From positions 1 to 27,343 of IMG/VR virus record IMGVR_UViG_2734482779_000006: a stretch of DNA of 27,343 nucleotides; one strand, 5' to 3'. Below, one piece after another: positions 5,520 through 23,971 of this stretch. This stretch comes from a virus. Lineage: Duplodnaviria > Heunggongvirae > Uroviricota > Caudoviricetes. The notes below the pieces were generated by a model. That model was given only the letters and a program-made list of their open reading frames with translations, made no database searches and was not told the DNA's origin. Each line of letters begins with the position of its first letter. Within the stretch, counting starts at the first letter, position 1. A program made the position numbers and the translations under genes.

Positions 5520-5520
5520 G

Positions 5521-7195: not shown

Positions 7196-7214
7196 CAGAT
7201 AACCAACGCAACGA

Positions 7215-7238
7215 CCCAGCTTCGGCTGGGTTTTTTTA
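7215..7238 (+). terminator. rho-independent terminator after ant
   Basis: Hairpin CCCAGC-TTCG-GCTGGG followed by TTTTTTT. Confidence 0.7.
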
Positions 7239-7305
7239 TGCCCAAAATTCACCGTAGCTACGCTGCGGCGATTCCTTGTATCTGGAGCAAATTAAATGAC
7301 AGACA

Positions 7306-7794
7306 TTATCTAAAACAAGCAAACTCGCCATGATATTTTTCCCTGAATGCAATAGACATCAATTCGGCCAGCTCAATATCATCGGTATACCCAAGGCAAA
7401 TAGACTTACCTTTTAGTTTGAACATAACTTTATATGTGTTTTTCCCTTTAAGAAGATGAACTCCTTTTATACCTGTATTGGATGATGAAACGCTGTTGGT
7501 TTTATTCTGACCTCTGGTTACTTCTCTTAGGTTTGAAATTCTATTGTCATTTTTAACCCCGTTAATATGGTCAATTAACCCTTTAGGCCAGCATCCTTTC
7601 ATATAAAACCAAGCAAGTCGGTGGCAAAGATACGATTTTCCATTAATCCGTATTGATAAGTAGTCGGCCTGTGAGTTCGTCTTAAATCCAGCAACCTTTC
7701 CGATACTGGAGCTACCAGAAGCTATCTTCCAAGTGAAGACGCCTGTTTCTGGGTTGTAGTTGAGTGAAGAGGTTAATTCTTTATGAGTAATCAT
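7306..7794 (-). CDS. HNH homing-type endonuclease (HNH_3/AP2-like)
   Basis: Motifs CHRLAW...GLIDHINGVKNDNRISNLR typical of phage HNH endonucleases; ATG at 7794 has better RBS spacing (AAGGA plus 6 nt) than the ATG at 7800. Confidence 0.75.
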   Translation of the reverse strand: MITHKELTSSLNYNPETGVFTWKIASGSSSIGKVAGFKTNSQADYLSIRINGKSYLCHRLAWFYMKGCWPKGLIDHINGVKNDNRISNLREVTRGQNKTNSVSSSNTGIKGVHLLKGKNTYKVMFKLKGKSICLGYTDDIELAELMSIAFREKYHGEFACFR

Positions 7795-7820
7795 ATTCAT
7801 TCCTTAAATAGAGATTCACT

Positions 7821-9953
7821 ATGTCAAATATTGTGCCAAATGTTATAATTTCAATGCCAAGTCAACTATTTACGTTAGCCAGAAAATTCCAAGCCGCAAG
7901 CAATGGCAAGATATTCATTGGTAAGATAGATTCCGATCCTACGCTCCCACAGAATCAAGTGCAGGTTTATGTGGAGAATGAAGACGGTTCTCACGTTCCT
8001 GTTTCGCAACCAATCATCATTAACGCTGCTGGTTATCCTGTATATAACGGACAGATTGCCAAATTCGTTACCGTGCAAGGCCATTCTATGGCTGTTTATG
8101 ATGCGTATGGTGCACAGCAGTTTTACTACCCAAACATTCTGAAATATAACCCTGACCAATTAGAGTTGAGATTAATTGGACCGGATGGTTTTAAATACAT
8201 AGGGAGATGCAAAAATATTAATGATTTACGTCTAATAGAACCAACAATTGAAAGTCAATTAATAAATGTTATTGAGCATAGTGATGGTGTTGGTATCGGT
8301 GGCGGTTTTTTTGAGTATGATTCAACAGATAATACTTCAGAAGATGATGATGGAATGATAATTGTCACGCCTGGTGGAAAGCGTTGGAAAAGGATATGCA
8401 ATAAAGTGTATGCTGATTATTACGGAATTGTTCCAGATGGAGTAACGGATTATCATGATAAATTGAACAAAGCACTGCAAGCGGCAAAAATGGCAACGGT
8501 GAAAGAGCTTATTCTTTCTGAAGGTACTTACGGGATTAACTCTGCACTGAAAGTACCATCTCACGTTAGATTGCGTGGGGTGGGGAAATTTAAGACCGTT
8601 ATTCTAGCACTACCAACAATGCCGATAATTGAAAACTGTATTCAGAACGAGCTTTATGAATACAGGGTATTCAGGACAAACTACGATACTTCTATCCACA
8701 TAGAAGACTTATGTGTAGATGCTAACAATCGAGCAAGAAATCCGTCAGAAACATGGATGGATGCCACACAGGGGACTACTATTTTATTTTCTACTGTTAG
8801 CCACAGTTCCATCAAAAACGTTTACTGTAAGCGTGGTTTGCAGCATGGTATAGATATTTGTGCCGGGTATTATTTCGATGATGGAAATATTGATAATAAT
8901 GCAGTTGGCGGTAGCTATGACATTGTTGTTGAAGACACTTTTGTTCAAAACAGTCAACTTGACGATCTCATTACAACGCATAATAGCAGTGATATTGTAA
9001 TTAACCGCTGCCGAGTATGGAACGATGACCCATCTCAAGTATGGAATGATAACCAACACGGAATTGAAATTGATGAAGGAAGTTATAACGTCACAGTAAT
9101 GGATTGTTATGCTGAAAATGTTATCACTGGGTTTCAACAAAAAGGTCACTCCACTACAATGCCTGCTAGAAGTGTCCGATTCATTCGTTGTTATGCAAAA
9201 GATTGTGTTTACAGTTTCCAAATTGAACATCGAAACTCACAAACAATACCTTCTGGGCAACATCAACAAGCGCGTAATTCAGTGATTGAGGATTGTACGT
9301 CTGATAACGCAAATAATATTAAATATCAGGCTCTTCACGCTCGCGCGCTTCTTGTTTTAGGTTTTTTTGGTGTTTATGTGCGAAATCTGAGAGTTATAGG
9401 AGGGTCAGGAAATATATATTTAACTGGTGGTGCTAAATATATAAATATCGATGGTGTTCAGTGGACTGGAGGGTATGATGGAGCATCAAGCACCACACAG
9501 GAAGGGTTGATACATATAGAAACTAACGCAGCAGTTGATGATTATTGCATTCGTGATTTTATATGTGAAGATACGGTTACCGTGCCACTTATAAGAGACC
9601 TTACTGACACCACTGTTCAGCGAGAAATATCAAATGTTCGTGGGTATGGCGGGGATAATTCAATCCCAATGATCGCTATTGCGCCGCAGTCTGGTGATAA
9701 TATATCTAATATATCTAATGCGGGTACGTGGGCCTGCGCCATTAGAGATATGGCTAGAGAGGTAGGACAAGGTGATTACGCTCAAAGTGTATCCTTCCAG
9801 AATGGTTTCATTTTTATTTCAGGTAATGGCACCCCAAATGGGGTTATATCTGGCAAACCTGGTGCCGTGTATGTTAACACGGCGAGTGGATTTCAGTATC
9901 TTTGCACGGCTATAGGCAAAAATAACTGGGTTCCAATTACAACCGGAGTTTGA
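7821..9953 (+). CDS. tailspike protein with P22-type N-terminal head-binding domain
   Basis: First ~110 aa ([49 protein letters not shown]...[15 protein letters not shown]...LKYNPDQ) closely parallel the P22 gp9 N-terminus; the remainder is a long divergent receptor-binding region; 710 aa. Confidence 0.9.
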
Positions 9954-10012
9954 TGGTTAAAAATATCACACGCAAAGCTTTGCATCGGTTTGCAAGGTTT
10001 TGCGCCAATTCC

Positions 10013-11170
10013 CTATGATACATTCCCATCAAGCCAGTCCGCCCACCATTGCATCATTTCTCTGCGCTTATCCAGATACTGAGCATGGTTGTAAATCCCG
10101 CGTACAGATCCGCCGTTGGCATGTGCCAGTTGCACTTCAATAGCATCAGCAGGCCATTCGTGCTCGTTCATAATTGTGCTGAATTCATGCCTGAATCCGT
10201 GACCGCTTTCCAGACCTTCATAGCCGATTTGTTTGATCACAAGCAATACCGCGTTCTCGCAGATTGGCTTCTTCTTATCGTTGCGACCGGCAAAAACAAA
10301 CTCTGATACTGGTTTAGTGATTGAGCTTAGCGTAGTGAGAAGTTCAATCACCTGGTCTGACATAGGAACCACATGAATTTTGCGTCCTTTCATCACACTG
10401 GCGTCGATGGTGATAATCCTGTTTTCAAAATCGACGTTCTTCCATTGCATGGAACGAAGCTCTTTAGTTCTTAGGGCTGTATAGCGTAAAACCTTGGTGG
10501 CAATGAGCGATACGATACTTCCTGAAAATGTTGCCAGTGCTTTGTTGAATGCCGGGATCTGGTCTGCAGGAAGAAACGGGAAGTTCTTCTTGCGGTATCC
10601 CTTCATGGCGTCAGCAAGGTCAGGTGCCGGGTTATATTTAGCCCTTCCGGTGACAATAGCGTAACGGAAAACCTCGCCGCATCTTCTGCGTGCTTTGTTG
10701 GCTCGCTCCATTGCCCCGCGATCTTCAAATCTGCGGATTACTTCCAACAGTTGCATCGGCTCAATATCCTGAATTTCAAGGCCGCCGATGATGGGTAAAA
10801 TGTCGTCATCAAACATTTTTGCAAGTTCATTTGCATAGCCTACTGACCAGACTTGCTTCTTGTGCTCGTACCATTCCTTGTAAATGGCGCTAAAGGAGTT
10901 GTTGTTAGACGAAGCCTTTTTCGCCTTTACCGGATCGATGCCAACCGAGATGTCTTTCCTCGCGGTCCATGCTTTATCCCTTGCCTCCTGCAAAGTCATA
11001 AGCGGATATTTTCCGACGGTCAGGATTTTCTCCTTACCGTCAATCTTGTAGCGAAGCTGCCATACCTTTTTCCCGGATACAGGGACATAAAGGTACAGTC
11101 CATTACCATCGAGAAGGCGGTATGGTTTTTCTTTCGGCTTTGCTGCTTCAATCTGCTTAACGGTGAGCAT
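10013..11170 (-). CDS. intS: IntS-type tyrosine integrase (P4-like, argW-specific)
   Basis: 385 aa from MLTVKQIEAAKPKEKPYRLLDGNGLYLYV (integrase N-terminal arm-binding type); catalytic motifs GHGFRHEFST and LAHANGGSVRGIYNHAQY; the 16-bp argW-derived att core lies about 160 bp upstream. Confidence 0.9.
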   Translation of the reverse strand: MLTVKQIEAAKPKEKPYRLLDGNGLYLYVPVSGKKVWQLRYKIDGKEKILTVGKYPLMTLQEARDKAWTARKDISVGIDPVKAKKASSNNNSFSAIYKEWYEHKKQVWSVGYANELAKMFDDDILPIIGGLEIQDIEPMQLLEVIRRFEDRGAMERANKARRRCGEVFRYAIVTGRAKYNPAPDLADAMKGYRKKNFPFLPADQIPAFNKALATFSGSIVSLIATKVLRYTALRTKELRSMQWKNVDFENRIITIDASVMKGRKIHVVPMSDQVIELLTTLSSITKPVSEFVFAGRNDKKKPICENAVLLVIKQIGYEGLESGHGFRHEFSTIMNEHEWPADAIEVQLAHANGGSVRGIYNHAQYLDKRREMMQWWADWLDGNVS

Positions 11171-11330
11171 GGGTAAAAATCCGGTGGGTAAAATTATTTT
11201 ATCCACTTTTTACCCGTCATGTAGTGCGGCTGTCAACGATCTGACGCGAACCATGACGAACTGTAAATCTACGGAAGGCTTGATATTCAGGGGATTTTGC
11301 GGACTGGTACGGATGGGAGCGAACTGATAA

Positions 11331-11346
11331 ATGGTGTCCCCTGCAG
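11331..11346. repeat. att core direct repeat ATGGTGTCCCCTGCAG, identical to the argW 3' end at 23971-23986
   Basis: Exact 16-bp match to the tRNA acceptor/T-arm 3' end; positioned upstream of the intS start in the same way that argW sits upstream of the second integrase. Confidence 0.65.
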
Positions 11347-11568
11347 AAATCATCTTAATTATTATCGTATTGATTTATATGTTATTTATTTTGGCTGTCT
11401 TGTTTTTGTACCCGTTTTGTACCCGTTTTATTCTATTCCCAATTTAAACTTCGATTCTGAAAAGGTGAGTGGGGGAGGTTATCATTTTATGTATCATTGT
11501 TGTAGACACAGAATAATTACTCGCCTATCCTCACTGTATACACACCATAGATACAGGAGTTAACCCAC

Positions 11569-11817
11569 ATGCGCACACAGGTTGTATTGCAAAAATGGGG
11601 TAACAGCATTGCCCTTCGACTAACGGGAAACCTTAAAACCGTTCCGGGTTTTTCAGTGGGTGATATCGTCAACGTTGAAATTAGTGAAAAAGGGCTTTTT
11701 GTAGAAAAGCCTGCACGCCGTCGCCTGAGTGAAGCCGAACTACTCGCCGGGATAACGCCAGTTACAGCGCACGCTGACGAAATTGCCACCCCATTCAATG
11801 AGGAGGTTGATTACTGA
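11569..11817 (+). CDS. MazE/ChpS-family antitoxin (AbrB/SpoVT fold)
   Basis: 82 aa; KWGNSIALRL motif and acidic C-terminus typical of MazE/ChpBI; stop overlaps the toxin start. Confidence 0.8.
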   Translation: MRTQVVLQKWGNSIALRLTGNLKTVPGFSVGDIVNVEISEKGLFVEKPARRRLSEAELLAGITPVTAHADEIATPFNEEVDY

Positions 11818-12161
11818 TGTTTGTACCTAAGCGTGGTGATATTTGCTGGCTGGATTTTGAGCCGCAGAAAGGAAAAGAGATCGGAAAGTATCGCCCGGCA
11901 CTCATACTGTCCCATGAGCAATATAACCGACTCACCGGGTTTGTCATATGCTGCCCCATAAGTACGAGCATACGAAATGCTCCCACAGAAGTTCCGGTAA
12001 CAAATCTGGACGCCCCCAGCGTGGTAGCAACCACACTCATTCAAACCCTTGACTGGCGTCAGCGGAAAGCGCGCTTAATCACAGAGGCAGAAGATGGGGT
12101 ATTTAATGATGTGCTTGAAAGAGTCATTACTCTGATTGGTGGAGAGCATCTGCTTAAGTAA
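11817..12161 (+). CDS. MazF/PemK-family endoribonuclease toxin
   Basis: 114 aa; PKRGDICWLDFEPQKGKEIGKYRPALIL matches the MazF/ChpBK N-terminal signature; start overlaps the antitoxin stop by 1 nt. Confidence 0.85.
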   Translation: MFVPKRGDICWLDFEPQKGKEIGKYRPALILSHEQYNRLTGFVICCPISTSIRNAPTEVPVTNLDAPSVVATTLIQTLDWRQRKARLITEAEDGVFNDVLERVITLIGGEHLLK

Positions 12162-12204
12162 AAGGAGGGCTGAGAAGCCCTCAACGTTACCGGAAATTTC
12201 CTTG

Positions 12205-13476
12205 CTATTCTTTCCAGTCAATCCCATCCAGTAAGCACCCTGCCTCATATTGCCCCACCACCCAGTCAAGGTTACAGGACTCATAGAACGAGAGGCGATT
12301 ATACTGAGGCTCGTTTTTTACCAGGCCACGAACGGAACCACGCTGCCAGTACAGACACAGATTGGCAAGAGGTGTGATCAATACAGCATTGTCCGGGAAA
12401 AATGGAACGGTTACAGCCGGGAGATTCCCCAGAACGGGATTTTTAATGATTTCCTCGTTAAGCAAAATTTCCTGATTCATCTGCGATGGATCAAGACGGT
12501 TTATCAAAGGCCATTGTTTACGGACCAGCGTATTGTGACTGCATACGGCCACAATGCCTTCCTGCCACTGTTCATCAATCATGGATTGCCAGGCATCCAG
12601 AACGAGCGCATCTATCGTATGGTGTGTACCGCGTGTATTACTTTTCGGTGATGAAACAGAAAGGCCGCTGATAACCCTTCCCGCCGCTTCATTTCGAAAC
12701 TTCTGCAACCAGCCCACGCCACAATCGTCACGCCCCGGATATGTTTTAGGGTCAGATTTGGCGGCATAATGTGTGCCGTTAAAACCAATCTGAATTAAAT
12801 CCAGCCATTTCCGGCGTTCAAAAGCGGCCCGCGCACTTCCTTCAAGGCCGTTTGCGGATGCGTGAGCATCGGCATTGTCGTAGTTCAACGCAAAATCAAA
12901 ATTAACCTGCTCGCAGCGGTAGCCCCTTGAAACCAGTGAATGCGCCTGTAGTGGCGAACGGCGCTCGTGAGGTGGCGATGTACGTGCCAACGACCCCGAA
13001 GCGTCTACCAGCACAACCCGACCTGATATATCCGTAACAGGCACGGGAGTTATTTCAGCAAGGAAATTTGCCTGCCATCCACTGGCAAGCGTTGCACTCT
13101 GGCGAGGAACGGGTTCAACTTCTGACGAATAGCGCGCAGTGTCACCGGAAAAGTGCAAATCCTTCGGATGCTTTCCGGTTATCGACTCGATAGCGCAATT
13201 GAAAACCATCTGAGACTGTTGATTTCGTTGTGATACAACAGAATCAGCAGTGCAATTATAACGCTCAATGCCGTCGTTATTACCCCCACCGCTTGCAGTA
13301 TGCAGGGTGTGAAGCTCAAGCTCACGCTCCAGTTTTTGATATTCATTGTCCAGCGCGCGACGCGTCTCATCGCTTATGCTTGCTGTGTTTGCTTTCAGGC
13401 GATTCCGGGACATTAATCCCCTGAGTCGGCTCACTATATCAGCGCCGTGCAAATGTGGAGTATTCAGACCGCCCAT
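12205..13476 (-). CDS. candidate P2-family major capsid protein (gpN-like)
   Basis: 423 aa from the ATG overlapping the upstream stop (TAATG at 13474-13478); segments NFDF...GFNG...GWLQKFRNEA...GNLPAVTVPFFPDNAVLITPLANL...NYxSxNLDWVVGQYEAGCL resemble my recollection of P2-family capsid proteins; sits in a late-type operon downstream of an Ogr/Delta gene; needs confirmation. Confidence 0.45.
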   Translation of the reverse strand: MGGLNTPHLHGADIVSRLRGLMSRNRLKANTASISDETRRALDNEYQKLERELELHTLHTASGGGNNDGIERYNCTADSVVSQRNQQSQMVFNCAIESITGKHPKDLHFSGDTARYSSEVEPVPRQSATLASGWQANFLAEITPVPVTDISGRVVLVDASGSLARTSPPHERRSPLQAHSLVSRGYRCEQVNFDFALNYDNADAHASANGLEGSARAAFERRKWLDLIQIGFNGTHYAAKSDPKTYPGRDDCGVGWLQKFRNEAAGRVISGLSVSSPKSNTRGTHHTIDALVLDAWQSMIDEQWQEGIVAVCSHNTLVRKQWPLINRLDPSQMNQEILLNEEIIKNPVLGNLPAVTVPFFPDNAVLITPLANLCLYWQRGSVRGLVKNEPQYNRLSFYESCNLDWVVGQYEAGCLLDGIDWKE

Positions 13477-14186
13477 TACTGCCACCCCCGGCAGAGTTCT
13501 CTGCCCTCCGCAAGGTCGCGCATTTTTTCTGGATTCTGTCGCGCCGCGCTCCATTGTACAGGTGAAGGGGCGCTCCTGATTGCGCAGCTTACTGAATCCG
13601 GGAGTTTCTCCGGGCAATAACGCAGCGGGCTGGAGGTGTCGCTTTCGGTATCGTTAATCCGGCCGCGAATCATCCCGACACTTTCAGCAGTATCTGCCGC
13701 TTTCAGTGTTTCGCATATTTTCTTTTCTGCGTTATACAGCGGCTGGCCAAGCAGCTCACATAAACCACGAATCAATAACAGAACAGGGGTCAGCTCGTTA
13801 ATCAGTTCGGGAAGTGCTTTTGCAAATATCTCTGCCCGCAACTTATTATCAATACTTTCGTAAGCACAACCAGCCTCTGCCGCGTTATAACGACACTCCA
13901 GTAGCCTGATGCGCGCCTCATCATGCAGCACCCGCAGACGCTCAAGATTTTCTCGCGCCACACCCGCCTGAATGGATAATTTCGCGGAGGCTTCCGTTTT
14001 TACTCCCAGCGCAGACAGGATTGAGTTCTGCCAGTCACGATCGAGAGACTCCAGTTCCCCTTTCGTCTGTTCGATAGTCGCTTCCAGATTGGTGACTAAT
14101 GATTCCTGTTCACTGAGCTTTGCCCTGGCTGTATCAAACTGTGCTTTACATACCTGATGTTCGGCGCTTGCCTGAGTTATATCCAT
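13476..14186 (-). CDS. coiled-coil protein, candidate capsid scaffolding or size-determination protein (gpO/Sid-like)
   Basis: 236 aa, strongly helical and heptad-like N-terminal half; translationally coupled to the capsid-like gene; size close to P4 Sid (244 aa as recalled). Confidence 0.4.
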   Translation of the reverse strand: MDITQASAEHQVCKAQFDTARAKLSEQESLVTNLEATIEQTKGELESLDRDWQNSILSALGVKTEASAKLSIQAGVARENLERLRVLHDEARIRLLECRYNAAEAGCAYESIDNKLRAEIFAKALPELINELTPVLLLIRGLCELLGQPLYNAEKKICETLKAADTAESVGMIRGRINDTESDTSSPLRYCPEKLPDSVSCAIRSAPSPVQWSAARQNPEKMRDLAEGRELCRGWQ

Positions 14187-14350
14187 TATTTGCTCCTGTA
14201 ATACATTTTTTACTTACGCCGATTTTTTCCATATTGCGTAATACATTCCAGCCGATTTTGTTCTCGTAATACGCTCACAATACTGTTGTATTACGCTTTC
14301 TTATATCGCGGGTGTTAAATCCCGACATAAACAATCAGGGAGGCAACACG

Positions 14351-14584
14351 ATGAAAAAACAAAAGAAAATGCGATGCGTATTACGCTGTATTCGTATTCC
14401 GCTCGAAATCGACCATAAAATAAATCAGATATGTAAGGACAGAGAGATGAACTACTCCCAGTGCGTCAGGATGTTTATCAGTCAGGGAATTAAGGCTGGG
14501 GAAAAGCATGAAGAAGACCGCAACGGGCGCAATGTCGCGGGGGATGTGTGGGCCTGGGCAAATGACCAGAACCACACGACATAA
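14351..14584 (+). CDS. small ribbon-helix-helix (CopG/Arc-like) DNA-binding protein
   Basis: 77 aa from ATG 14351 (GGGAGG RBS); RCIRIPLEIDHKINQICKDREMNYSQCVRMFISQG fits a beta-strand then helix-helix RHH pattern; divergent from the scaffold/capsid operon. Confidence 0.5.
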   Translation: MKKQKKMRCVLRCIRIPLEIDHKINQICKDREMNYSQCVRMFISQGIKAGEKHEEDRNGRNVAGDVWAWANDQNHTT

Positions 14585-14634
14585 TACAGAAATAACGCAG
14601 CCGGTCACACTCGCTGGCTGTGTTATACAAATCA

Positions 14635-14817
14635 CTATGAAGTTTTCGACTTCCTGCGCTTAGTGATGCGTACAAACGACTCAAGCGTACAAAAACAGGC
14701 CCCGCACTCAATATTATTGCACTGGTAATACGTTTTGTAGATGTTTTGTTCGTGTTCTTCCAACGAACGACCACGGGTGCGGGCTGAAGCGCCACAGGCC
14801 GGGCAAGGGAAAGACAT
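14635..14817 (-). CDS. Ogr/Delta-family zinc-finger late transcription activator
   Basis: CPACGASARTR...YYQCNNIECGACF is the C-x2-C...C-x4-C Ogr/Delta zinc finger; AGGAG RBS 6 nt upstream of ATG 14817. Confidence 0.8.
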   Translation of the reverse strand: MSFPCPACGASARTRGRSLEEHEQNIYKTYYQCNNIECGACFCTLESFVRITKRRKSKTS

Positions 14818-15387
14818 ATCACGCTCCTCTTACTGGTGTGAAATTTAACCTATTATATCTTCCGCCGCCTCCTCTGGCTGTATCAAATAAATCCGCAACG
14901 GTCGCTGCGTATTACGCGCAGGCACACCGTTCCCATACTCACTCCTCACATTCCCCGTATCAGTTCTCTCTTGCAGTAAGAACGGCTCTGGCTGGCGATA
15001 AAACTAACCCGGTCGGGCATTCCCACAGTCTTTAGCGAAAGATGTAATTTACCCCCTGAAACGCGGGCTGTTCCCCCGTCACCTGCGCGCGAAAAACTCA
15101 CCGTTTTTTGTGCACGCACGAAATCGCCCTCCGGGCGCGCCCGTACTGGGCCGGATGGGCAAAAAGTTACTCTAAAAAATTGTGCAAATTTGTGCACTTT
15201 TGTGCAAACGGGAAGAGGCTGTTTAAAGGCGGTTTTTTGCGTTTTTTTGGTAGCTGTAACGTGATGCGTATTACGTTTTTATTCGCTTCTATGTGAAGAG
15301 ATAACAATGATTTCATTCAATTTATTGTGTTGCACTTTTGTTGCTGGTCTTGCCAGTGTTTTTTTGCCTCTACCTCAAAATCCGGTA

Positions 15388-15690
15388 GGGGGTGCGCAAA
15401 CGGGTTACAAAGGTTACAGCCCCCTAAAACACATATTAACACCATGATTTTAAATGAAATTGTTTGTAACCTTTTTGAGGTTACAGAAGGTTACACGAGG
15501 TTACACCAATTAAAAACATATTAATTATCAATTAGTTATAAGCGTGCTCTGTAACCATGCGTAACCTCTGCATAAAGGTTACATGTAACCCTGTTGTAAC
15601 CCATTTTGTAACCTTTTAAAGGTGTTATAATATATTGATATATAATATATTTTTCTGTTTGTAACCTTTGTAACCCGTTTGCGCACCCCC
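15388..15690. repeat. 30-bp perfect inverted repeat (15388-15417 and 15661-15690) flanking an array of about 14 GGTTAC/GTAACC hexamer iterons
   Basis: Left arm GGGGGTGCGCAAACGGGTTACAAAGGTTAC is the exact reverse complement of the right arm; hexamers between the arms often fall at 10-11 bp phasing; AT-rich core TATAATATATTGATATATAATATA at about 15626-15650. Confidence 0.7.
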
Positions 15691-15940
15691 CCCCGGACTT
15701 TAGCGCGCGCCTTTAAAATGTTAATTAAACTAACTTACTATGTGTCACTCTCATTAACTTTCTGTGACTAAAATGTGTCTCGTCACTGTGGAACTCTTTC
15801 TGATAATCAGGGGGCAAAAAATTGATGGCGGCACCACTGCAATATGGCCACCATTGCATTGCTGTTACCGTTGGTTCTGGCCAACAAAAAAGGCCAGTGG
15901 AAAACTGACCTCTTTTGCTGTGAATGTAGTGTTCTGCGGG

Positions 15941-16942
15941 TTACTCTGCTGGCTCTTTTTCTTTGGCGATATTCGCATTAGCCACTGGATTAAACTTCAG
16001 GACATCAGACAAATAATCAGGCGCAAAATGTGCGTATATCATTGTTTGTTGAATATTTGCATGCCCTAAAACTCGCTGAAGAGCAATTATACTCCCTCCA
16101 TTCATCATAAAATGCGTAGCGAATGTATGCCGTAATACATGAACAGCTTGCCCCTTTGGCAGATCTGGCTTTACAGCGCGAAGCATTTTACGGTATTCAC
16201 CATAATCAACATCAAACAACCCCCCCGAATCTTTTGTTTTGATTTCGCGAACAACTTCATTTGAAATGGGAACAATGCGGACTTTACCGTTTTTGGTTTT
16301 GTTAAATATCACACGATTATCAATGATGTGTTCTGCTCGCAAGCTTTTTGCCTCTCCCCATCTGGCCCCCGTACTAAGGCACAGCAATGTAATTCGACGC
16401 GCATCACCATTAGAAAAATTCAACAAACGAATAATTTCTTCATGTGTCAGATATGTCATTTCTGAAATCTTTCGTTTCATAGCGGGAACAGAACGAACAG
16501 GATTTTTACTATGAAATTCTCCACTCTGGATCAACATGGTGAACATTCCAGCCAATTCCGCTTCATCTCGCTGAATTGTAGAAATTTTGACTCCTGCTCC
16601 CAATCTCTCGCTGCGATACATAGCCATAAACCGCGCATTTATTTGTTCTGCTCGCGGATCTCCCATTTCTTTAATTACTTTCTTTAGTCTTAATTTAACA
16701 TTGTCAGCGTATGGTTTGTTGCGTCCACCCAGTTTCCACCACAGCTCCAAGAGTTCAGAAATGCGCCTGTGATCAGCTGGCTTTTCAAGCCACTCTTTAT
16801 CATTCATATGGCTAAGAACATATCGCTCAAAAGCTAAGGCATCTGCTTTCTTTTTAAAAAGCCGCTGAATTCTGCGTCCATACCGCCCGTTTGGCCTGAT
16901 ATCTACCTTATAGGAGCCATCATCACGCTTTTTAACGGACAT
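15941..16942 (-). CDS. P2-type tyrosine integrase/recombinase
   Basis: 333 aa from ATG 16942 (AGGAGGG RBS 9 nt upstream, 3 nt after the primase stop); N-terminus MSVKKRDDGSYKVDIRPNGRYGRR is typical of P2-family integrases; catalytic HVLRHTFATHF and LGHANIQQTMIYAHF. Confidence 0.85.
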   Translation of the reverse strand: MSVKKRDDGSYKVDIRPNGRYGRRIQRLFKKKADALAFERYVLSHMNDKEWLEKPADHRRISELLELWWKLGGRNKPYADNVKLRLKKVIKEMGDPRAEQINARFMAMYRSERLGAGVKISTIQRDEAELAGMFTMLIQSGEFHSKNPVRSVPAMKRKISEMTYLTHEEIIRLLNFSNGDARRITLLCLSTGARWGEAKSLRAEHIIDNRVIFNKTKNGKVRIVPISNEVVREIKTKDSGGLFDVDYGEYRKMLRAVKPDLPKGQAVHVLRHTFATHFMMNGGSIIALQRVLGHANIQQTMIYAHFAPDYLSDVLKFNPVANANIAKEKEPAE

Positions 16943-16944
16943 AT

Positions 16945-19614
16945 TTAGCGTCCCTCCTTGTAGCTGAATATCCAGCATTTCAATACTTCATTTTCTTTAG
17001 CCTGGGCTACCCCCCTTCCGGTGTTCGCCTGTTTGACTACCTCGCTACGGACTGACTTGTACCCAATCAGTGGCCGAGAACGACCAGTCTTGAGAAGCTT
17101 TATCATTTCGGGATTGGTTTGGATCTTCACATGGTGAATAGCGGCAACCTGCTCCAGTTGCGGGATACTAACGGCAAGCCCATTCTGGGATCCCTTGCCA
17201 AAGTGGTTTACGCCGTATGCTGTTATGCCGTCCAGATAGTCGAACGCCTCCCAGAACGCTATTACTTCCGGCAAGTCATCCGTTACCGCTTTAGCTTGTT
17301 CCGCTGCCATTCGTTCCAGTTCCTGGCATGTGGCATTAAGCCATTCATCCGGGATATCAATAACGCATTTCAGCGCCCTGACCAGCGCAATAAGTTGCGC
17401 GTGATTTTTGGCAATACGCTGATGACGAATATTTTCGCAACCATAAAGGCGGGTTGTTTCAGGATCAGATAGTGCCATAAACGTCTCCATAATCGCCCGT
17501 TCCTGACTTACTGCCCGATGGATAAAACCTGATACCTGCTCAACGGGGTAAAGCTCCAGCCGTTTTGCTGCCAATCGGCTATCTGGTGAGTGGCGTTTTT
17601 TATCGGTGTATACGCGTACCAGACGCTCAATAATTGCCGATGAGGCGTTTACCGTGGCATTCTGCGCAATCACGATAGCCCCCTTAAAAACGGGGTCATA
17701 TGTGGCGTTATCATTGGTTTTAACGCCACGCACCCCAATACCGCCACCGTTATAGAGGCTTTTCAGGTTATCGAAATCAAACGCCCCCCTTTTTTGTGCG
17801 TTATCGCCCCTGTCCGCTTCAATCAGAACAACAGGTAATCCAGCAACCTGTCCAAAAGTTCGCTTCCAGCCTGATTCTGAGCCTTTGGTTGGATCAACAC
17901 CTTCATAGTTGTCACGGCCACACAAACGCCAGCAAAAATCAATTAACGTTGTTTTACCCGTACCTGGCTCTCCGGTAATCTCAAGAAAGGGGTAAGATGT
18001 GTTTTTCTGCCTGATTTGTTCGCTGAACAACGAACCCAACCAGAAAGCCAGGGTAATAATTCCCTTTTCACCAAACGCCAGCCAGAGATCTTCCACCCAG
18101 GATGTTGTAAATTCATCCGGTTTTTTATAGTTAATCTGCAATATTGGTTTTTTATTCAATGGTTTTGCGTTTACGCCATCAATTTCAAAATAATCCTCTT
18201 CATTGATTTCGTAGGTTTTACCATTACAAACCGCGATATCATTAAACAACCACGCACCAATCTCTTTGTTGTATCCGATAAAATCCTGACCGATAACACT
18301 TTTTATTGCGGGAAGGTCATTTTTTATTAATGCGTCAAGGTGCGCAGTTGTTCCGGTATAAATACCGCCTTTTGCTACGTGCAACAGACGTTTTTTAAAT
18401 TCAGATGCGGATGTTAATTGCCCTGATGTAAAGGTGTTTTTCACCGTAGCACCATCCGGGAATGTAATGCGGAAGTAATACCATGCTTCATCCGTATCAT
18501 TGTTTCGAATGTAATAAAGCGGCACTGGGTTACAGTTTGCGATTTCTTTTACAGCGCCGGATTCCTTGAGTGCAATTTTGCGCGCTTCATCTTCGTCAAC
18601 ATTTCGCTCATTAATGACACGCTCAACAGCCTTCATATGGCGCTCAATATCCAGCTTGAACCAGAACACACGGTTATCAAAGGGAAAATGAAATTCCTTT
18701 CGCTCACGAAAGGAAAACATTATTAGTGCCTTATCTCTCGGAGATTTCGCCAGCAATAAATCACCGTAATAACGGTATCTTTTCACATCATGGCCACGTA
18801 GCTTTCCGGCGATGTGTAAATCATTCCAGTCGCGTTTATTGTTGTTTTCACCCGGTAACGCCGCTGCCGTTCTCCAGCCGCCTTCGGCGCTGCGTTCTGC
18901 ATGTTTTTTTGCGTAACGCTCACCCGCACGCCCGTTATCCAGCGCCCACACAATAACCGGACGGGGATTATCTCCGCACAGCTTCGCCAGTTCTTCCAGC
19001 GCCTTATCAGGGTAGTTCACGGCAGACATGACAGAAACGGCCGCAATGCCATTCTGGTTAAGGCTGATGGCATCAAAGACACCCTCACAAATCCAGATTT
19101 CTTTGGCCTTGCTTAAATCTGCTCCCGGATAAGCCCACCACAGCCCCTTGTAGCTGCCGGAAAAATTCGCCTTGCGCGCGAAGCGTTCCGGTCGGTCTAT
19201 GATGCGCTCCCACCACACACCGTCAGCCAGCGTAAAACGCACGGTAGCAGCTTGTTCGCCGCTTTCCTTGTCCTGGTATCGCTCCTGAGTAAATGCGCCC
19301 TTCAGTGGCTCCACAGCAATATTGCGCGCCTCCTGAAGATAAGCTGCCGCCGCTGCGTATGGATCGTCTTTCGTGCTGATATAGCGATCTGACCATGATG
19401 AAAACACATCCGGGTAAAGTTCTTTGGTCAGCAGGTCTGTACCGCATTTATTTTCACGCCCGCAGTGTACGATGTACGGCCTTTCAAGGCTGGTAAACAG
19501 CTCCTTCTTTCCACATTGCGGACAAACACCATACCGAAGGTAGTTATTTTCTTCTTTGAAGTTGTAATCACGGATAAGACGGTTAATAATCTCTTTTCTG
19601 GTATCAGGCTTCAT
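16945..19614 (-). CDS. P4 alpha-like primase-helicase
   Basis: 889 aa; N-terminal zinc-binding CPQCGKK...HCGRENKC; Walker A GEPGTGKTT in the C-terminal helicase region; location and size typical of satellite-phage alpha proteins. Confidence 0.9.
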   Translation of the reverse strand: MKPDTRKEIINRLIRDYNFKEENNYLRYGVCPQCGKKELFTSLERPYIVHCGRENKCGTDLLTKELYPDVFSSWSDRYISTKDDPYAAAAAYLQEARNIAVEPLKGAFTQERYQDKESGEQAATVRFTLADGVWWERIIDRPERFARKANFSGSYKGLWWAYPGADLSKAKEIWICEGVFDAISLNQNGIAAVSVMSAVNYPDKALEELAKLCGDNPRPVIVWALDNGRAGERYAKKHAERSAEGGWRTAAALPGENNNKRDWNDLHIAGKLRGHDVKRYRYYGDLLLAKSPRDKALIMFSFRERKEFHFPFDNRVFWFKLDIERHMKAVERVINERNVDEDEARKIALKESGAVKEIANCNPVPLYYIRNNDTDEAWYYFRITFPDGATVKNTFTSGQLTSASEFKKRLLHVAKGGIYTGTTAHLDALIKNDLPAIKSVIGQDFIGYNKEIGAWLFNDIAVCNGKTYEINEEDYFEIDGVNAKPLNKKPILQINYKKPDEFTTSWVEDLWLAFGEKGIITLAFWLGSLFSEQIRQKNTSYPFLEITGEPGTGKTTLIDFCWRLCGRDNYEGVDPTKGSESGWKRTFGQVAGLPVVLIEADRGDNAQKRGAFDFDNLKSLYNGGGIGVRGVKTNDNATYDPVFKGAIVIAQNATVNASSAIIERLVRVYTDKKRHSPDSRLAAKRLELYPVEQVSGFIHRAVSQERAIMETFMALSDPETTRLYGCENIRHQRIAKNHAQLIALVRALKCVIDIPDEWLNATCQELERMAAEQAKAVTDDLPEVIAFWEAFDYLDGITAYGVNHFGKGSQNGLAVSIPQLEQVAAIHHVKIQTNPEMIKLLKTGRSRPLIGYKSVRSEVVKQANTGRGVAQAKENEVLKCWIFSYKEGR

Positions 19615-19660
19615 ATATAAATCCTCTCCCCCCCCCTGTAAAAATACAGGGGGTTATTCT
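19615..19660 (-). other. stem-loop plus G9 tract in the primase 5' leader
   Basis: On the minus strand CCCCCTGTA-TTTTT-ACAGGGGG hairpin followed by GGGGGGGGGAGAGGA and the ATG; no U-tract, so not a canonical terminator. Confidence 0.4.
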
Positions 19661-19966
19661 TTATAATTGTTTATTGCTTTCTGAAATCCCCACAAACCGT
19701 GCAGCATGTAGAGAGAAAGGGCGCTCAGAGTAATAAATATTGCCTTTTATTCTTTCCAGTTCGCGCAACAAAATGCGCAAAATCGCCTTCATTTGTGAAC
19801 CTGATACAATGTCAGCGCCAGGAGTATCTATTGCAATGTCAGAGAAATAAGATAATAAATCAAGTGTTAAAATAACATCACAAAGAGAGTTATTTGCATC
19901 ATCGGAGATAAATCCAACATATTTAGATAAAATATCATGAATAAACATATTCTGATTTTCAGACAT
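19661..19966 (-). CDS. hypothetical protein (satellite early region)
   Basis: 101-aa ORF directly upstream of the primase leader; no recognisable motif. Confidence 0.4.
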   Translation of the reverse strand: MSENQNMFIHDILSKYVGFISDDANNSLCDVILTLDLLSYFSDIAIDTPGADIVSGSQMKAILRILLRELERIKGNIYYSERPFSLHAARFVGISESNKQL

Positions 19967-20033
19967 AAAAGCTCCCCGACCCGTTAAGGCCGAAATATAA
20001 AATTAATTCAGTTATCAGTTGGCAATTCGGGAA

Positions 20034-20252
20034 TCAGGCAGAAAGCTGCGTAACCTTCAACGCCCTGAAATGTGTCATTCCCAGCTCTTCCAGCCCTTCG
20101 GCTGCGCGGCGTATGGCTTCGCCCGGCCCCGTTCCGTATACCGTTGCGTGTGCATGTTTGGTTAACCCGCGCTTATTAACGGCATAACCCAACACAAAGA
20201 AACGTTTTTCACCACTGCCATTATTTTTACGGGATATTGAACGGCTTTTCAT
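20034..20252 (-). CDS. hypothetical small protein
   Basis: 72-aa ORF at the end of a chain of overlapping small genes. Confidence 0.4.
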   Translation of the reverse strand: MKSRSISRKNNGSGEKRFFVLGYAVNKRGLTKHAHATVYGTGPGEAIRRAAEGLEELGMTHFRALKVTQLSA

Positions 20253-20437
20253 TTCTTCACCTTTACCACTGATGCTGTGAGTTCTTCTTCTGGCAATTGA
20301 TATTTCGGCGCAATTTCTTCCGTATACCTGATAGCGTCCCTTGCCGCTTTTCCTTTTGATTTATATTTACGTATCGTGTGGAAGTTTTCTTCCTCTCCTG
20401 TTACCACATTACGCAATTTAATATGGATCTCGTACAT
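20249..20437 (-). CDS. hypothetical small protein
   Basis: 62 aa from internal ATG (MYEIHIKL...); stop overlaps the next start (ATGA). Confidence 0.4.
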   Translation of the reverse strand: MYEIHIKLRNVVTGEEENFHTIRKYKSKGKAARDAIRYTEEIAPKYQLPEEELTASVVKVKK

Positions 20438-20439
20438 CG

Positions 20440-20622
20440 TTACCCCTCCATGATTTTTACTGCGCATTTGTGGGTTAATCGCCCCTGTTTGTCATTGCGG
20501 GAATATGCCATACGACAGGCATCACGCCATGCATCGTCATAAGTCGGGTATTCCCGGGCATGAATCATCTGGCGAACGTCGCCGTTCTGGCAGTTAATCA
20601 GGGTGATAAGGAGCTTAAACAT
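20440..20622 (-). CDS. hypothetical small protein
   Basis: 60 aa from ATG 20622 with GGGAGG RBS 7 nt upstream (MFKLLITLINCQNGDV...). Confidence 0.4.
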   Translation of the reverse strand: MFKLLITLINCQNGDVRQMIHAREYPTYDDAWRDACRMAYSRNDKQGRLTHKCAVKIMEG

Positions 20623-20788
20623 GGCACGCCTCCCGGACACGAATACGGGCAACAAAGACCAGACGGGATGCCGGAAGCAGGGCGCGCGCTTCGCGCTCAC
20701 TGGCAGCGGTAACGGTATGAAGGCGGATATTTTTACCGTGGCACTGCATAAAGCGCCAGATAAAATCAGGGCGTGTTGATATAGCCAT
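20615..20788 (-). CDS. hypothetical small protein
   Basis: 57 aa from ATG 20788 (GGGAG RBS); the longer 175-aa version upstream is low-complexity and unlikely to be coding. Confidence 0.3.
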   Translation of the reverse strand: MAISTRPDFIWRFMQCHGKNIRLHTVTAASEREARALLPASRLVFVARIRVREACHV

Positions 20789-21204
20789 ATGAAAGGCTCC
20801 CAATTCAAGTTTAAGAAGCCTCACTACAACGCTGTCAAACGTGGTGGCGAGACGTAACAGGGTTGACAGACTGGCAAATTGGGAAACCAGCGAGCATAAA
20901 GCTCCCCCATTACGCCCCGCCATAATACGGGAAAGGGTGGTATTACGGGCACAAAAAAACCGCATTACGGAATACAAGCGGCTACCCGCCAATTTATTCA
21001 GGCTGTCAAACCCGGCACCTGTTTTATGAGGTGCGGGCAAACGATACGCCATGACAAAAAAGCGAGTCAAGCAATATTGCAAATTATTTTGGCGCGATTG
21101 CGCTGAGTGATTGATTTTTAAGAGTAAAAAAGCCATAATCATTTCTGCCTATTATTTCTTATTGTTGGTTTCAGGTGCACTAAATGCACATCCTTGACTG
21201 GTTG

Positions 21205-21236
21205 GCTCGCTAGCTTTAGCGAGCTTCTTTTTTTTG
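21205..21236 (+). terminator. plus-strand intrinsic terminator inside the satellite leader region
   Basis: GCTCGCTA-GCTT-TAGCGAGC hairpin followed by TTCTTTTTTTTG; orientation is antisense to the satellite genes. Confidence 0.5.
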
Positions 21237-21697
21237 CTCTGCTGCCAGTACCCGGCCTCCTTCCCTCACATGTAGTAATGTGCCCGCTCCAGTCAGCTGG
21301 ATAATGCTGTATTCCCGGACATCCGGTTATGATGTTTAAAGCGTTTGTTTGTTTATGCCACGTGGAGAATATCCCCATGTCGCCATTACTTGTATTTATC
21401 ATAACAGTTTACCCAATCCGGTTAATGTAACCGGAATAACTCAATTTCATACACTGTAAATAAATGCTGATTTTGAACTTAGCTCCTTGGAATATATTTC
21501 TTACGTGTGATGTACAGGTGAAAATATCCCTCTGATAGTCCATTTTCTTTTATTGGGTCACATCTGTTTACTCCGGTTCCCTTAACAAGGGTAGAGCATC
21601 TTTTAAACCATGAATGCATCTTTGGTTAAGTGATGTTTCTTATTGAATGAAATGTTTAGGCGCATATCGCGCCATGCTGACTATAAAGTGAAAATAA

Positions 21698-21919
21698 TTA
21701 AGCCTGAAAACGTTGTTGTTTTCTTTCTTCTATCCAGTCGATAATTTCCTCTTCAACCCATGCAACCGCACGAGGGCCTATTTTTATTGGTTTGGGGAAT
21801 ATATCAGATTTTATATCTTCGTAAATTCGAGCTCTCGATCTCCCTGTGATTTCAATGACTCTGGGGAGTCTTATTAATTTTTGAATCCGCCTTTCGCTGG
21901 TCTGTGAGTATGCTGACAT
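21698..21919 (-). CDS. AlpA/Vis-family transcriptional regulator or excisionase
   Basis: IRLPRVIEITGRSRARIYEDIKSDIFPKPIKIGPRAVAWVEEEIIDWIEER follows the AlpA pattern RLPxVxxxTGxxRxTIY...FPxP...GxRxVxWxExEIxxW. Confidence 0.8.
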   Translation of the reverse strand: MSAYSQTSERRIQKLIRLPRVIEITGRSRARIYEDIKSDIFPKPIKIGPRAVAWVEEEIIDWIEERKQQRFQA

Positions 21920-22448
21920 ATTGGCCTCCTGTATATGCTGAACACTTTATGTTAGCTCACAGTGGGAGCATGTAAGATCTCGCGGTCGTCTGCGGGACGA
22001 GAAAAATCATAAACAACGAAAAGCGGATTTGTAAATCTGGTCGATTTTCAGACGGGGTTGACATGGACAGTTAGATTTGTTCCATGTGTGAAATATACAT
22101 TTTAGGACCACTTTAAGCCGCTTTAAACCGCCTGGAAGCGACAAAGAATAACAAGTTAGTGCCAGAAAGGTTTGCTGACTTACCCTTTCAGGCACCAGGA
22201 AAGCCCGTTCTGGGGGATGTAATGCTTGCGAACGCTGGAATAGTGGTTTCTGAAAACAAAAAAAGAATTGAAAATGTGATACATATCACAAAATGATATC
22301 GATAAAATAGTTTGATTTTTTTTGTTTTTATTAAAAGCACTGGTTAATTGTGAAAAATTAATTATAAATCAAATAGATATATCTGTTTTTTTAGGGTAAA
22401 AATCACTAGGTGCTTTTAGTGAGGTCTTATTCTATTGATTTTAAAAGA

Positions 22449-22482
22449 TAAAAAAATCGGCGTGTCCACATATTGTCCACGC
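22449..22482 (-). terminator. rho-independent terminator downstream of the satellite integrase
   Basis: On the minus strand GGCGTGGACA...TGTGGACACGCC hairpin followed by GATTTTTTT. Confidence 0.6.
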
Positions 22483-22530
22483 CTTGAGCTTAATTCAGCC
22501 GCTTGGGGTAGTTTAGTTTGTTGAGTTGAT

Positions 22531-23793
22531 TCAGTCTGTTTCGTTAGCCCATTTAAAATCATAGGGGGCAATATATGCCGTCTTGCAGGTGTCGAGATAA
22601 TCAGCCCACCATTGCAACATTCGGCGGCGTTCCTGCATATGTTCAGCTCTGTGAATGTATGCAGCCCGGACACTGCCTCTTTCCCTGTGACTCATCTGAA
22701 GCTCAACGGCTTCTCTTGTCCACCTGCCTGACTCTGTCAGCGCCGAACAGGCCATAGCTCTGAATCCGTGGCCACAAATATCTTTTTTTGTGTCGTATCC
22801 CATGTGGCGTAATGCCTTGTTAATGGTGTTTTCGCTCATTGGTTTTATCTGGTAATGGTCGCCGGGGAAAATAAACAATTCATCACCGGATATATTTCTT
22901 ATATCGTCAAGAAGCTGCATGGCCTGAGTGGGCAAAGGGATGGCGTGAGGGGTTCCCATTTTCGTTCCACGATATGAATATTTTACGCCTTCTATTTTTT
23001 CGCGTTCTGCTGGTATTACCCACATTGATTTATCAAAGTCAATTTCATTCCAACGAGCAAAACGCAATTCACTTGAGCGAATAAAAATTAATAAATTTAA
23101 TTTTAGTGCAAATTGCGTTAATAACCGTCCATTCATCTTGTGGTGGTAATCATTTATTTTGCCAAGTAATTCAGGTAATCGCTCAAGGGGAAGAGCGGGG
23201 CGATGTTTGGTTTTATTAGTTTCGATTGCACCGTTCAGTTCCTGCGCTGGATTGTATTTAATCATTCCATTCTGTACAGCGTAGCGCATAATGGCGTTCA
23301 TTCGCTGCTTGTTACGTGATGCTGTCTCAAGCACTCCTTTATCTTCCATTTTGCGTAAAGGAATCAGTAGATCCATGGTTGTGATCTCGTTAATTGGCCT
23401 TTTACCAAGAATGGGGAAGATGTGGTTTTCCAGGTCTTTTAAGACTTTTTGCGCGTGTAATTCGCTCCAGCCCTTTTTCCGGCTGTGCCATTCTCTGGCA
23501 ACGTCTTCAAAAAGCACTATTTGAGGTTTTGGTGTGTGCAGTGGGTCAATGCCTTTAGCCAGGCTCGCCAGATATTCATCACGAGCGTTCCTTGCCTGTG
23601 CAAGTGTTACGGCAGGATAAATGCCTAAAGCTCGGGTCGTTTCTTTACCGTTGATAACCTTGCGAAAGCGCCAGTATTTTGAGCCGTTGGGGTGAACATA
23701 GAGATACAGGCCTTTCCCGTCACGAAGTTTTTTAATTTTGTTGTTGTCCTTATCTGGTTTGGCGTTACGTACAGCTACATCAGTCAGTTTCAT
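22531..23793 (-). CDS. IntS-family tyrosine integrase of the P4-like satellite
   Basis: 420 aa from MKLTDVAVRNAKP (GGAGGA RBS); N-terminal arm-binding type; catalytic GHGFRAMACS and SVRAAYIHRAEH; C-terminal MLQWWADYLD parallels intS MMQWWADWLD; immediately downstream of argW. Confidence 0.9.
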   Translation of the reverse strand: MKLTDVAVRNAKPDKDNNKIKKLRDGKGLYLYVHPNGSKYWRFRKVINGKETTRALGIYPAVTLAQARNARDEYLASLAKGIDPLHTPKPQIVLFEDVAREWHSRKKGWSELHAQKVLKDLENHIFPILGKRPINEITTMDLLIPLRKMEDKGVLETASRNKQRMNAIMRYAVQNGMIKYNPAQELNGAIETNKTKHRPALPLERLPELLGKINDYHHKMNGRLLTQFALKLNLLIFIRSSELRFARWNEIDFDKSMWVIPAEREKIEGVKYSYRGTKMGTPHAIPLPTQAMQLLDDIRNISGDELFIFPGDHYQIKPMSENTINKALRHMGYDTKKDICGHGFRAMACSALTESGRWTREAVELQMSHRERGSVRAAYIHRAEHMQERRRMLQWWADYLDTCKTAYIAPYDFKWANETD

Positions 23794-23971
23794 TATGTTG
23801 ATCCTCCAGACGGGTACAAATAAAAATCGAACCAAGCGTACCCGTTTTTATACCCATTTTAATATGGGCTTCAGGCAAATTTAACGAGAGATAACGAGAC
23901 AATGGAAGAGATTTAACTCATTGAAAAACAATGGGTAATGGTTTTTTCTGAGAGATTGCGAGAAGTTGCGA

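Follow-up and report, generated by a model that had tools for sequence, protein, structure and literature searches.

A hexamer-rich segment with long inverted ends is the probable replication origin of a P4-like satellite island

The window analyzed in this study is a stretch of Caudoviricetes DNA of 27,343 nucleotides (IMG/VR record IMGVR_UViG_2734482779_000006, positions 1 to 27,343), which contains a P4-like satellite island inserted at a tRNA-Arg(CCT) gene. Within this island, a segment of 303 bp (15388-15690) is closed by long inverted repeats, filled with short repeated hexamers and situated next to a gene for a tyrosine recombinase, int2. A sequence-only reading had offered three explanations for it: a promoter switch inverted by the recombinase, an attachment site of this recombinase, or a replication origin bound by the primase-helicase that is encoded nearby. 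We find the last of these borne out by co-variation, synteny, architecture and structural homology, although the initiator is not the alpha protein of P4 itself, and conclude that the segment is very probably the vegetative replication origin of this P2-dependent satellite.

The ends of the segment are identical in inverted orientation over 31 of 31 positions (15388-15418 and 15660-15690; GGGGGTGCGCAAACGGGTTACAAAGGTTACA), and the repeat runs on imperfectly to 42 nt at 93% identity (15377-15418 and 15660-15701). The repeat had thus been recognized correctly as real and perfect, while its length had been put at 30 bp; with arms of 31 bp each, the DNA between them measures 241 bp (15419-15659) and not 243 bp. 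By contrast, the estimate of about 14 GGTTAC/GTAACC hexamers is exact. Base composition predicts 0.145 copies for a region of this size, the remaining 27 kb hold just 11, and the next densest 303-bp stretch has at most three. Four of the 14 hexamers lie in the arms. Their phasing at one helical turn was likewise seen correctly, as successive copies of the same orientation are spaced 9-12 bp apart. The actual repeat unit is a 7-mer, (A/G)GGTTACA, to which we refer as the iteron in the following.

These iterons form opposed arrays around three AT-rich gaps (15419-15465, 15505-15550 and 15614-15660), and the GC content of the segment reaches its minimum, 18%, at 15610-15669. The integration host factor (IHF) consensus WATCAANNNNTTR has two matches in the entire window, both of which are located within the segment and are kept in all E. 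coli variants that we aligned. No RNA family of Rfam is found within or beside the segment. Folded as a single strand, it yields a very stable panhandle (z = -14), which follows trivially from the inverted repeats and has no bearing on function. The coordinates of all parts are given in Table 1.

Table 1. Parts of the hexamer-rich segment, its iteron variants and associated features of the island
Feature	Position	Strand	Remarks
Satellite island	11331-23986		~12.65 kb; 16-bp direct repeat ATGGTGTCCCCTGCAG at 11331 and 23971
cos packaging region	15046-15206		directly left of the segment, ~180 bp away
Left arm	15388-15418		composite end site: 15-nt outer element GGGGGTGCGCAAACG, then two inward iterons GGTTACA at 15403 and 15412
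Right arm	15660-15690		mirror-image composite end site: GTAACC at 15661 and 15670, then CGTTTGCGCACCCCC
Forward hexamers, GGTTAC	15403, 15412, 15479, 15489, 15499, 15577		arrays 15403/15412 and 15479-15499
Reverse hexamers, GTAACC	15466, 15551, 15561, 15585, 15596, 15608, 15661, 15670		arrays 15551/15561, 15585-15608 and 15661/15670
Inner iteron arrays	15466-15613		reverse 15466; forward 15479/15489/15499, 10 bp apart; reverse 15551/15561; palindromic pair GGTTACATGTAACC at 15577/15585; reverse 15596 and 15608
IHF consensus site 1	15526-15538	+	TATCAATTAGTTA; central AT-rich gap, between forward and reverse arrays
IHF consensus site 2	15628-15640	-	TATCAATATATTA; orientation opposite to site 1
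Candidate DNA-unwinding element	15610-15659		AT-richest stretch (GC 18%); invariant ATTGATATATAAT in the alignment; adjoins the right end site; role inferred
int2	15941-16942	-	P2-family tyrosine integrase; begins 2 nt past the stop codon of the primase-helicase gene
Primase-helicase gene	16945-19614	-	889 aa; zinc-binding domain, DnaG-type Toprim primase, AAA+ helicase (Walker A ~548-556), C-terminal domain
C-terminal winged-helix-like domain	16948-17274	-	residues 781-889; proposed iteron-recognition domain
C4 antisense RNA (Rfam; C4/CI, P4-type immunity)	20840-20927	-	70.5 bits
isrK (Rfam)	20953-21034	-	52.3 bits; beside C4 in the icd-like region
Iteron type A			(A/G)GGTTACA; arm GCGCAAAC
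Iteron type B			(A/G)GGTTACA; arm GCGGAAAC
Iteron type C			CGGTTACA in all copies

In the local gene order, the segment follows the primase-helicase gene and int2 and is followed by the cos region and ogr. The primase-helicase belongs to the family phrog_1139 (E = 2e-301; Toprim_2), together with the primases of phages phiCTX (orf37), RSY1, Smp131 and Escherichia phage ESSI2_ev239, to the last of which it is 50% identical. Homologs with E-values of up to 1e-20 number 866 and come from Escherichia, Salmonella, Yersinia, Providencia and Ralstonia, among others. In an alignment of 36 of these homologs, four cysteines, the acidic Toprim residues and the Walker A and B motifs are conserved. None of the 41 phage records matched by the protein in tblastn is a P4 record. 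Consequently, the term alpha primase-helicase, which had been used for this gene, is right with respect to the activities and wrong with respect to the family, which is of the phiCTX orf37 type.

While a sequence search of the PDB returned no match, the AlphaFold2 (AF2) model of the protein (pLDDT 85.6) was informative in a fold search with Foldseek. It matched the replication proteins of staphylococcal mobile elements, namely SCCmec Cch (5dgk), SaPIbov1 Rep (8tch) and SaPI5 PriRep (7ola/7pds), as well as DnaG primase domains and the helicase of SV40 LTag (1svl). At the C-terminus, the model shows a succession of helices and strands (H-E-H-H-E-H-E), with winged-helix topology at residues 782-883.

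To see what the hexamers follow, we compared the segment across loci, a check that had been proposed on the basis of the sequence. It is present in 67 of 5426 complete E. coli genomes, in six metagenome contigs, in ten IMG/VR contigs and in islands of Yersinia and Salmonella. A DNA search with the region in phage and plasmid collections found nothing, and the comparison with phages was therefore made via their proteins. Among 11 aligned variants, the positions of the hexamers are constant while the spacers drift, and three iteron types can be told apart (Table 1). These types coincide with clusters of the primase-helicase, which is 95-100% identical within and about 89.5% identical between clusters. 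The divergence is distributed unevenly along the protein: between types A and C, identity amounts to 91-97% for residues 1-700 and 78% for residues 701-780, and drops to 69% for residues 781-889. Of 54 type-diagnostic positions, 21 fall at residues 799-855 and none before residue 424. Within the C-terminal domain, the motif HHVKIQTN of types A and B tracks (A/G)GGTTACA, whereas HRVEIRTD of type C and HRVDITVS of Yersinia track CGGTTACA; in this domain, the Yersinia island with CGGTTACA iterons has residues in common with type C. At the sequence level, the iteron variants thus co-vary with the primase-helicase, chiefly with its C-terminal domain.

No such relationship exists for Int2. Its types I, II and III, which are 50-59% identical, are shuffled over the iteron types: locus L013 combines a type II Int2 with type B iterons, while L003 (type II Int2) and L010 (type III Int2) both have type C iterons. 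Likewise, the N-terminal arm-binding domain of Int2, at 46-57% identity between the types, shows no co-variation with the hexamers. Furthermore, the hexamer block also occurs without int2. In the loci L021 (Salmonella), L033, L049 and L043, which encode primase-helicase homologs of 52-61% identity and have no int2 between this gene and the repeats, a repeat-bounded GGTTACA block is found 250-350 bp downstream of the primase-helicase gene, with nothing in between. It has the same anatomy, i.e. arrays in both orientations, AT-rich gaps and inverted composite ends. In the window, the corresponding distance is 1.25 kb, with int2 intervening. The same primase also occurs in full P2-like prophages (L022 and L023), whose compared stretches end before the far side of each prophage and do not inform on the repeat block. 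The comparison therefore shows that the segment is conserved and that its hexamers follow the primase-helicase and not Int2.

The arms deserve separate consideration. Their composition is constant across lineages, with an outer element, a pair of iterons and a spacer of 3 nt per arm. Changes in one arm are mirrored in the other: GCGC became GCGG in type B, ACGG became AGCG and AAA became AAC in type C, and GTGCGC became CTTCGG in L033. Identity between the two arms of a locus ranges from 24/35 (L017) to 33/35, with 29/35 in Yersinia and 30/35 in L033. These mirrored changes are the mark of concerted evolution of two equivalent sites. Either selection for a pair of identical binding platforms or gene conversion could account for the likeness of the arms, and no recombinase is required for it. 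As a further observation, the outer part of the arms (15388-15402 and 15676-15690) has a (T/G)CGGAAAC-like or CATCGG(G/A)A-like motif, here as well as in L007, L017, L021, L033 and L049; as it is kept across primase-helicases that are just 50-60% identical, it is more conserved than the iterons.

In its organization, the segment agrees with known iteron origins: the repeats are clustered, with 14 copies where such origins call for at least six of 5-8 bp, opposed iterons surround AT-rich DNA, the block lies downstream of the gene of the putative initiator, this protein is a helicase with a C-terminal winged helix (as judged by topology), and the iterons co-vary with the predicted DNA-binding domain. 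We propose that the C-terminal winged-helix-like domain of the primase-helicase would bind the 7-bp iterons (A/G)GGTTACA, on opposed arrays around the AT-rich gaps. Two composite end sites, mirror images of each other at a distance of about 270 bp, would bound the origin, each made up of an outer CG(C/G)AAAC-type element and two iterons, and the two oppositely oriented IHF sites would probably bend the DNA. The initiator may then melt the AT-rich stretch and load itself as a helicase, probably as one hexamer per side, while its own Toprim domain would prime synthesis. The arms would be so perfect because both ends must be equivalent sites for one protein, with their likeness being kept by selection or gene conversion.

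Several points weigh against this proposal. The co-variation is drawn from few lineages (types A/B, type C and Yersinia), for which overall divergence acts as a confounder. The concerted change of the arms would fit arm pairing or gene conversion equally well, and the outer part of the arms (GGGGGTGCGCAAAC), which is not made of iterons, is left unexplained by iteron binding alone. The assignment of the winged helix is based on predicted secondary structure and topology and on whole-chain fold matches, not on a domain-level comparison. In the window, int2 stands between the initiator gene and the repeats, which differs from the arrangement in the Staphylococcus aureus pathogenicity islands (SaPIs). 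Finally, we found in the searchable literature no experiment in which a protein of this family binds such repeats or drives an origin, and no description of an origin for phiCTX-type primases or for this group of satellites; the Smp131 paper names the primase and does not discuss an origin.

Given the outer arm element, an extended version of the origin hypothesis can be considered, which we regard as rather improbable. According to it, the 31-bp arms would be dedicated loading platforms in a symmetric origin that is coupled to Int2. Another conserved part of the protein, e.g. the zinc-binding domain of the primase, or a host factor would recognize the outer element, and two hexamers would be placed head-to-head about 270 bp apart, joined by two IHF bends. 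P2-type terminases prefer monomer circles for packaging, and the co-transcribed, helper-type Int2 would reduce replicated multimers to such circles beside the origin. If true, this would represent a new type of origin, symmetric in design and linked to a recombinase.

The simpler version, an iteron origin of a self-loading helicase, has clear parallels in other systems. SaPI origins contain 6-12 penta- or hexanucleotide iterons, which are read by a C-terminal winged-helix domain; they are located just downstream of rep, with at least two iterons per side flanking an AT-rich region in opposite directions, and probably one hexamer is loaded per side (PMC9371898). The segment in the window shares with SaPIs and phage-inducible chromosomal islands (PICIs) the multicopy hexanucleotide iterons, the opposed arrays around AT-rich DNA, the location downstream of the initiator gene and the context of a phage satellite. 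Likewise, the initiator is in both cases an AAA+ helicase with a C-terminal winged-helix domain, which in SaPI5 is also fused to a primase. On the other hand, the proteins share no detectable similarity in sequence, and the primase of our protein is of the DnaG/Toprim type with a zinc-binding domain. The origins differ as well: here, 14 iterons are arranged in several alternating arrays with two IHF consensus sites, and the whole is closed by long composite inverted ends with a non-iteron outer element. Lastly, the host is E. coli and the helper a P2-like phage.

Like P4, the island is a satellite of P2-like phages and carries immunity of the P4 type, with C4/CI RNA and an icd-like gene. In both, a multifunctional protein combines primase, helicase and origin binding and reads short repeats. 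In P4, ori and crr are reportedly bound by the C-terminal winged-helix domain of alpha (PDB 1KA8). However, the two proteins belong to different families, and P4 has an ori and a distant crr where the island has one compact origin. The type I repeats of P4 (TGTTCACC) occur just twice, scattered and without a cluster, compared with 0.8 expected.

A further comparison is with full phages that encode homologous primase-helicases. In the annotation of phiCTX (GenBank AB008550), int is followed by a terminator, attP with R1/R2 repeats, a region of 'R3 repeats' with two IHF sites, and cos; the repeats and IHF sites are named there without an assigned function. We count 12 GGTAAT/ATTACC hexamers, of either orientation, in the R3 region, which is bounded by inverted GGTAATTTTGGTAAT pairs. 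Similarly, in ESSI2_ev239, attP at the 3' end of int is surrounded by six GTCCAC integrase arm sites, and a separate block of ATCACA/GTCACA repeats is built like the segment in the window. In both phages, the cognate protein is homologous (42-51% identical), terminal inverted iteron pairs are about 230-270 bp apart, and inner arrays run in both orientations with AT-rich gaps; phiCTX further shares the two annotated IHF sites and the order of int, attP, repeats and cos. What differs is the iteron sequence, which is GGTAAT in phiCTX, ATCACA/GTCACA in ESSI2_ev239 and GGTTACA here, and the type of element, as the island is a 12.6-kb satellite with longer, perfect arms. In both phages, the arm repeats of the integrase (R1/R2 and GTCCAC, respectively) are thus distinct from the hexamer-type block. 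Given these two classes of repeats and the lack of GTCCA[CT] between ogr and int2, the hexamers in the window belong to the second class and are not arm sites.

This bears directly on the proposal that the region is the attP of Int2, with the hexamers as its arm-type sites, which would serve a second integration route. The neighboring gene indeed encodes a P2-type recombinase, as had been noted: Int2 has Int_N and Phage_integrase domains with intact catalytic residues, and is 53% identical to the integrase of P2 and up to 58% to those of Klebsiella P2-like phages. The succession of ogr, intergenic region and int resembles that in P2, integrases of this type bind tandem arm repeats about 10-11 bp apart, and in phiCTX attP sits between int and the repeat region. 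Nevertheless, we consider an attP very unlikely. Arm sites of the P2 family are GTCCA[CT] tandems about 11 bp apart at the 3' end of int (P2, 705R2, ESSI2_ev239). We find them in a P2-like locus (L006), in 705R2 (L005) and in ESSI2_ev239 (L007), whereas they are absent from 14818-15940 (ogr to int2) in the window and from L003 and L013; neither P2-type arm sites nor a recognizable attP are seen beside any Int2 type. The 14 sites in symmetric arrays differ from the 2+2 arrangement of P2, do not co-vary with the four Int2 types and are also present in loci without int2. Moreover, the region is unsplit in 65-67 genomes, with the island integrated through int1 at tRNA-Arg (junctions at 11331 and 23971), and a search of the E. 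coli genomes for an attB-like core returned full-length island copies only, with cores shorter than about 28 bp being below its sensitivity. The adjacency of int2 is explained by a gene order inherited from phiCTX-type P2-like phages, and int2 is a neighbor of the origin, not a part of it.

Even less credible is a fim-like inverton, in which Int2 would recombine the 31-bp arms and flip the 241 bp between them, so as to turn an internal promoter toward the ogr and capsid genes or toward int2. As in fimS-type invertons, perfect and suitably spaced inverted repeats lie beside a tyrosine recombinase, which is catalytically intact and encoded 250 bp away, and the segment contains a TGnTATAAT-like element at about 15629-15637. 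With respect to both flanks, however, the segment has one and the same orientation in 67 of 67 E. coli genomes, 6 of 6 metagenome contigs, 10 of 10 IMG/VR contigs and the Yersinia and Salmonella loci, despite divergence down to about 68-75% identity. Inverted copies are thus absent from the 67 E. coli genomes and about 19 other loci. A synthetic inverted query had no high-identity full-length match in the 5426 genomes; its full-length alignments at 68-71% are native loci that align because of the quasi-palindrome. Some lineages have imperfect arms (24/35 in L017, 29/35 in Yersinia), and those of L033, which lacks int2, are near-perfect. Against the profile of tyrosine DNA invertases (NF007370), Int2 scores 17.6 bits, far below the cutoff of 221; it is an integrase rather than an invertase. 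Lastly, of the AT-rich, promoter-like core that had been described, the AT-richness stands, while the promoter does not: no sigma-70 promoter in the segment passes a consensus scan, and diverged variants do not keep the TATAAT-like element, which is lost in type C.

An accessory packaging site, i.e. a cosB-like terminase-binding region formed by the repeats and IHF sites, is to our mind just as implausible. Its appeal lies in the vicinity of a packaging site. The region 15046-15206 is 81% identical to that beside the portal gene of phage P88 and is therefore the packaging site; satellite and phage share a 44-nt identical core (ATTTACCCCCTGAAACGCGGGCTGTTCCCCCGTCACCTGCGCGC) and three TGTGCA repeats spaced 10 bp apart (15178-15206), and P88-like phages (Xuanwuvirus or Gemsvirus) are candidate helpers. 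The R3 repeats and IHF sites of phiCTX are likewise found between attP and cos, and cosB of phage lambda combines terminase-binding R sites with an IHF site (I1). Yet P88, with the same core and TGTGCA repeats, has no GGTTAC cluster (at most two per 303 bp), and the terminase of this candidate helper can therefore not depend on the hexamers. In addition, the sequence flanking the hexamer varies together with the C-terminus of the satellite's own primase-helicase, and the same kind of cos occurs in satellites of differing iteron type. For its own replication, P88 relies on a gpA-type endonuclease. Finally, a remnant of a miniature inverted-repeat transposable element or insertion sequence, placed beside int2 by chance, would account for the 31-bp terminal inverted repeats and the small non-coding body, but has practically nothing else to recommend it, as each island has one copy at a fixed position, none is dispersed in the 5426 E. 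coli genomes, plasmids or phages, no target-site duplication flanks it, and phiCTX and ESSI2_ev239 have the same architecture in another sequence.

Taken with the fixed orientation, the lack of P2-type arm sites and the existence of blocks without a recombinase, these comparisons leave the segment most likely as an ordinary kind of element, the iteron origin of a self-loading helicase. As such, it does not change our understanding of origins, since its design follows the precedent of SaPIs and P4. It would, however, place the origin for a widespread and unstudied family of primase-helicases, the phiCTX orf37 type of P2-like phages and of E. coli, Yersinia and Salmonella satellites, for which none had been mapped before. 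It also provides a natural specificity pair, (A/G)GGTTACA and CGGTTACA with two variants of the C-terminal domain. More generally, a long perfect inverted repeat beside a recombinase gene need not be a switch, which calls for caution in scans for invertons.

The gene int2 itself behaves as an exchangeable cassette, with at least four types of 50-59% identity (loci L003, L010, L013 and L017). On one side of these types lies the 3' end of the primase-helicase gene, which is conserved, and on the other a near-invariant stretch of about 130 bp (15815-15960), which comprises the last ~7 codons of int2 and its terminator hairpins. The integrase of a P88-like, helper-type phage shares 83-85% identity with Int2 of type II. 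In the stretch from the origin to the int2 terminators (15691-15815), ACTTTAGCGC, CCTTTAAAATGTTAATTAAACT and the palindrome CTGATAATCAG (15800-15810) are kept whatever the Int2 type; by position, this stretch matches attP of phiCTX, but it has no arm repeats and does not co-vary with Int2.

The 16-bp repeat at the borders of the island is the 3' end of tRNA-Arg(CCT). Between these borders, the genes follow in the order int1, alpA, an icd-like gene with P4-type immunity RNA, the gene of the 889-aa Toprim protein, int2 and the segment, and then the cos region, an ogr/delta-like gene, a homolog of P2-family capsid genes and mazEF. The RNA immunity module of P4 type (20840-21034) is thus paired here with a replication protein of non-P4 type. 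Near int1, a GTCCAC tandem with 11 bp spacing (22464/22475, within 22455-22490) resembles P2-type arm sites; however, the pair forms a hairpin stem with a T-run behind it on the minus strand and is situated downstream of int1, and 22455-22490 is therefore most likely the int1 terminator.

The capsid homolog (12205-13617, minus strand) is the island's own major capsid protein of the P2 family, with 470 aa, a match to Pfam Phage_cap_P2 at residues 179-466 (E = 8e-72) and an N-terminal extension of about 178 aa without Pfam match. It is adjoined by a gene for a 236-aa protein without assigned function (13476-14186). No homolog of sid or psu is present among the island proteins scanned. In the islands L004 and L019, the capsid gene is placed elsewhere in the element. 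At the attL end, the island carries a toxin-antitoxin pair of the mazE/mazF type (11569-12161); L004 and L019 have hok/gef in its place, which marks this as a position for variable cargo.

The remainder of the window on this side (1-11330) is the end of a P22-like prophage, which stands in tandem with the satellite and abuts the 16-bp att repeat at 11331. It encodes an injection protein, an antirepressor with sar RNA (6226-6292), a tailspike with head-binding domain and an integrase (10013-11206). On the side opposite this prophage, the tRNA is flanked by yfdC-like and mlaA genes.

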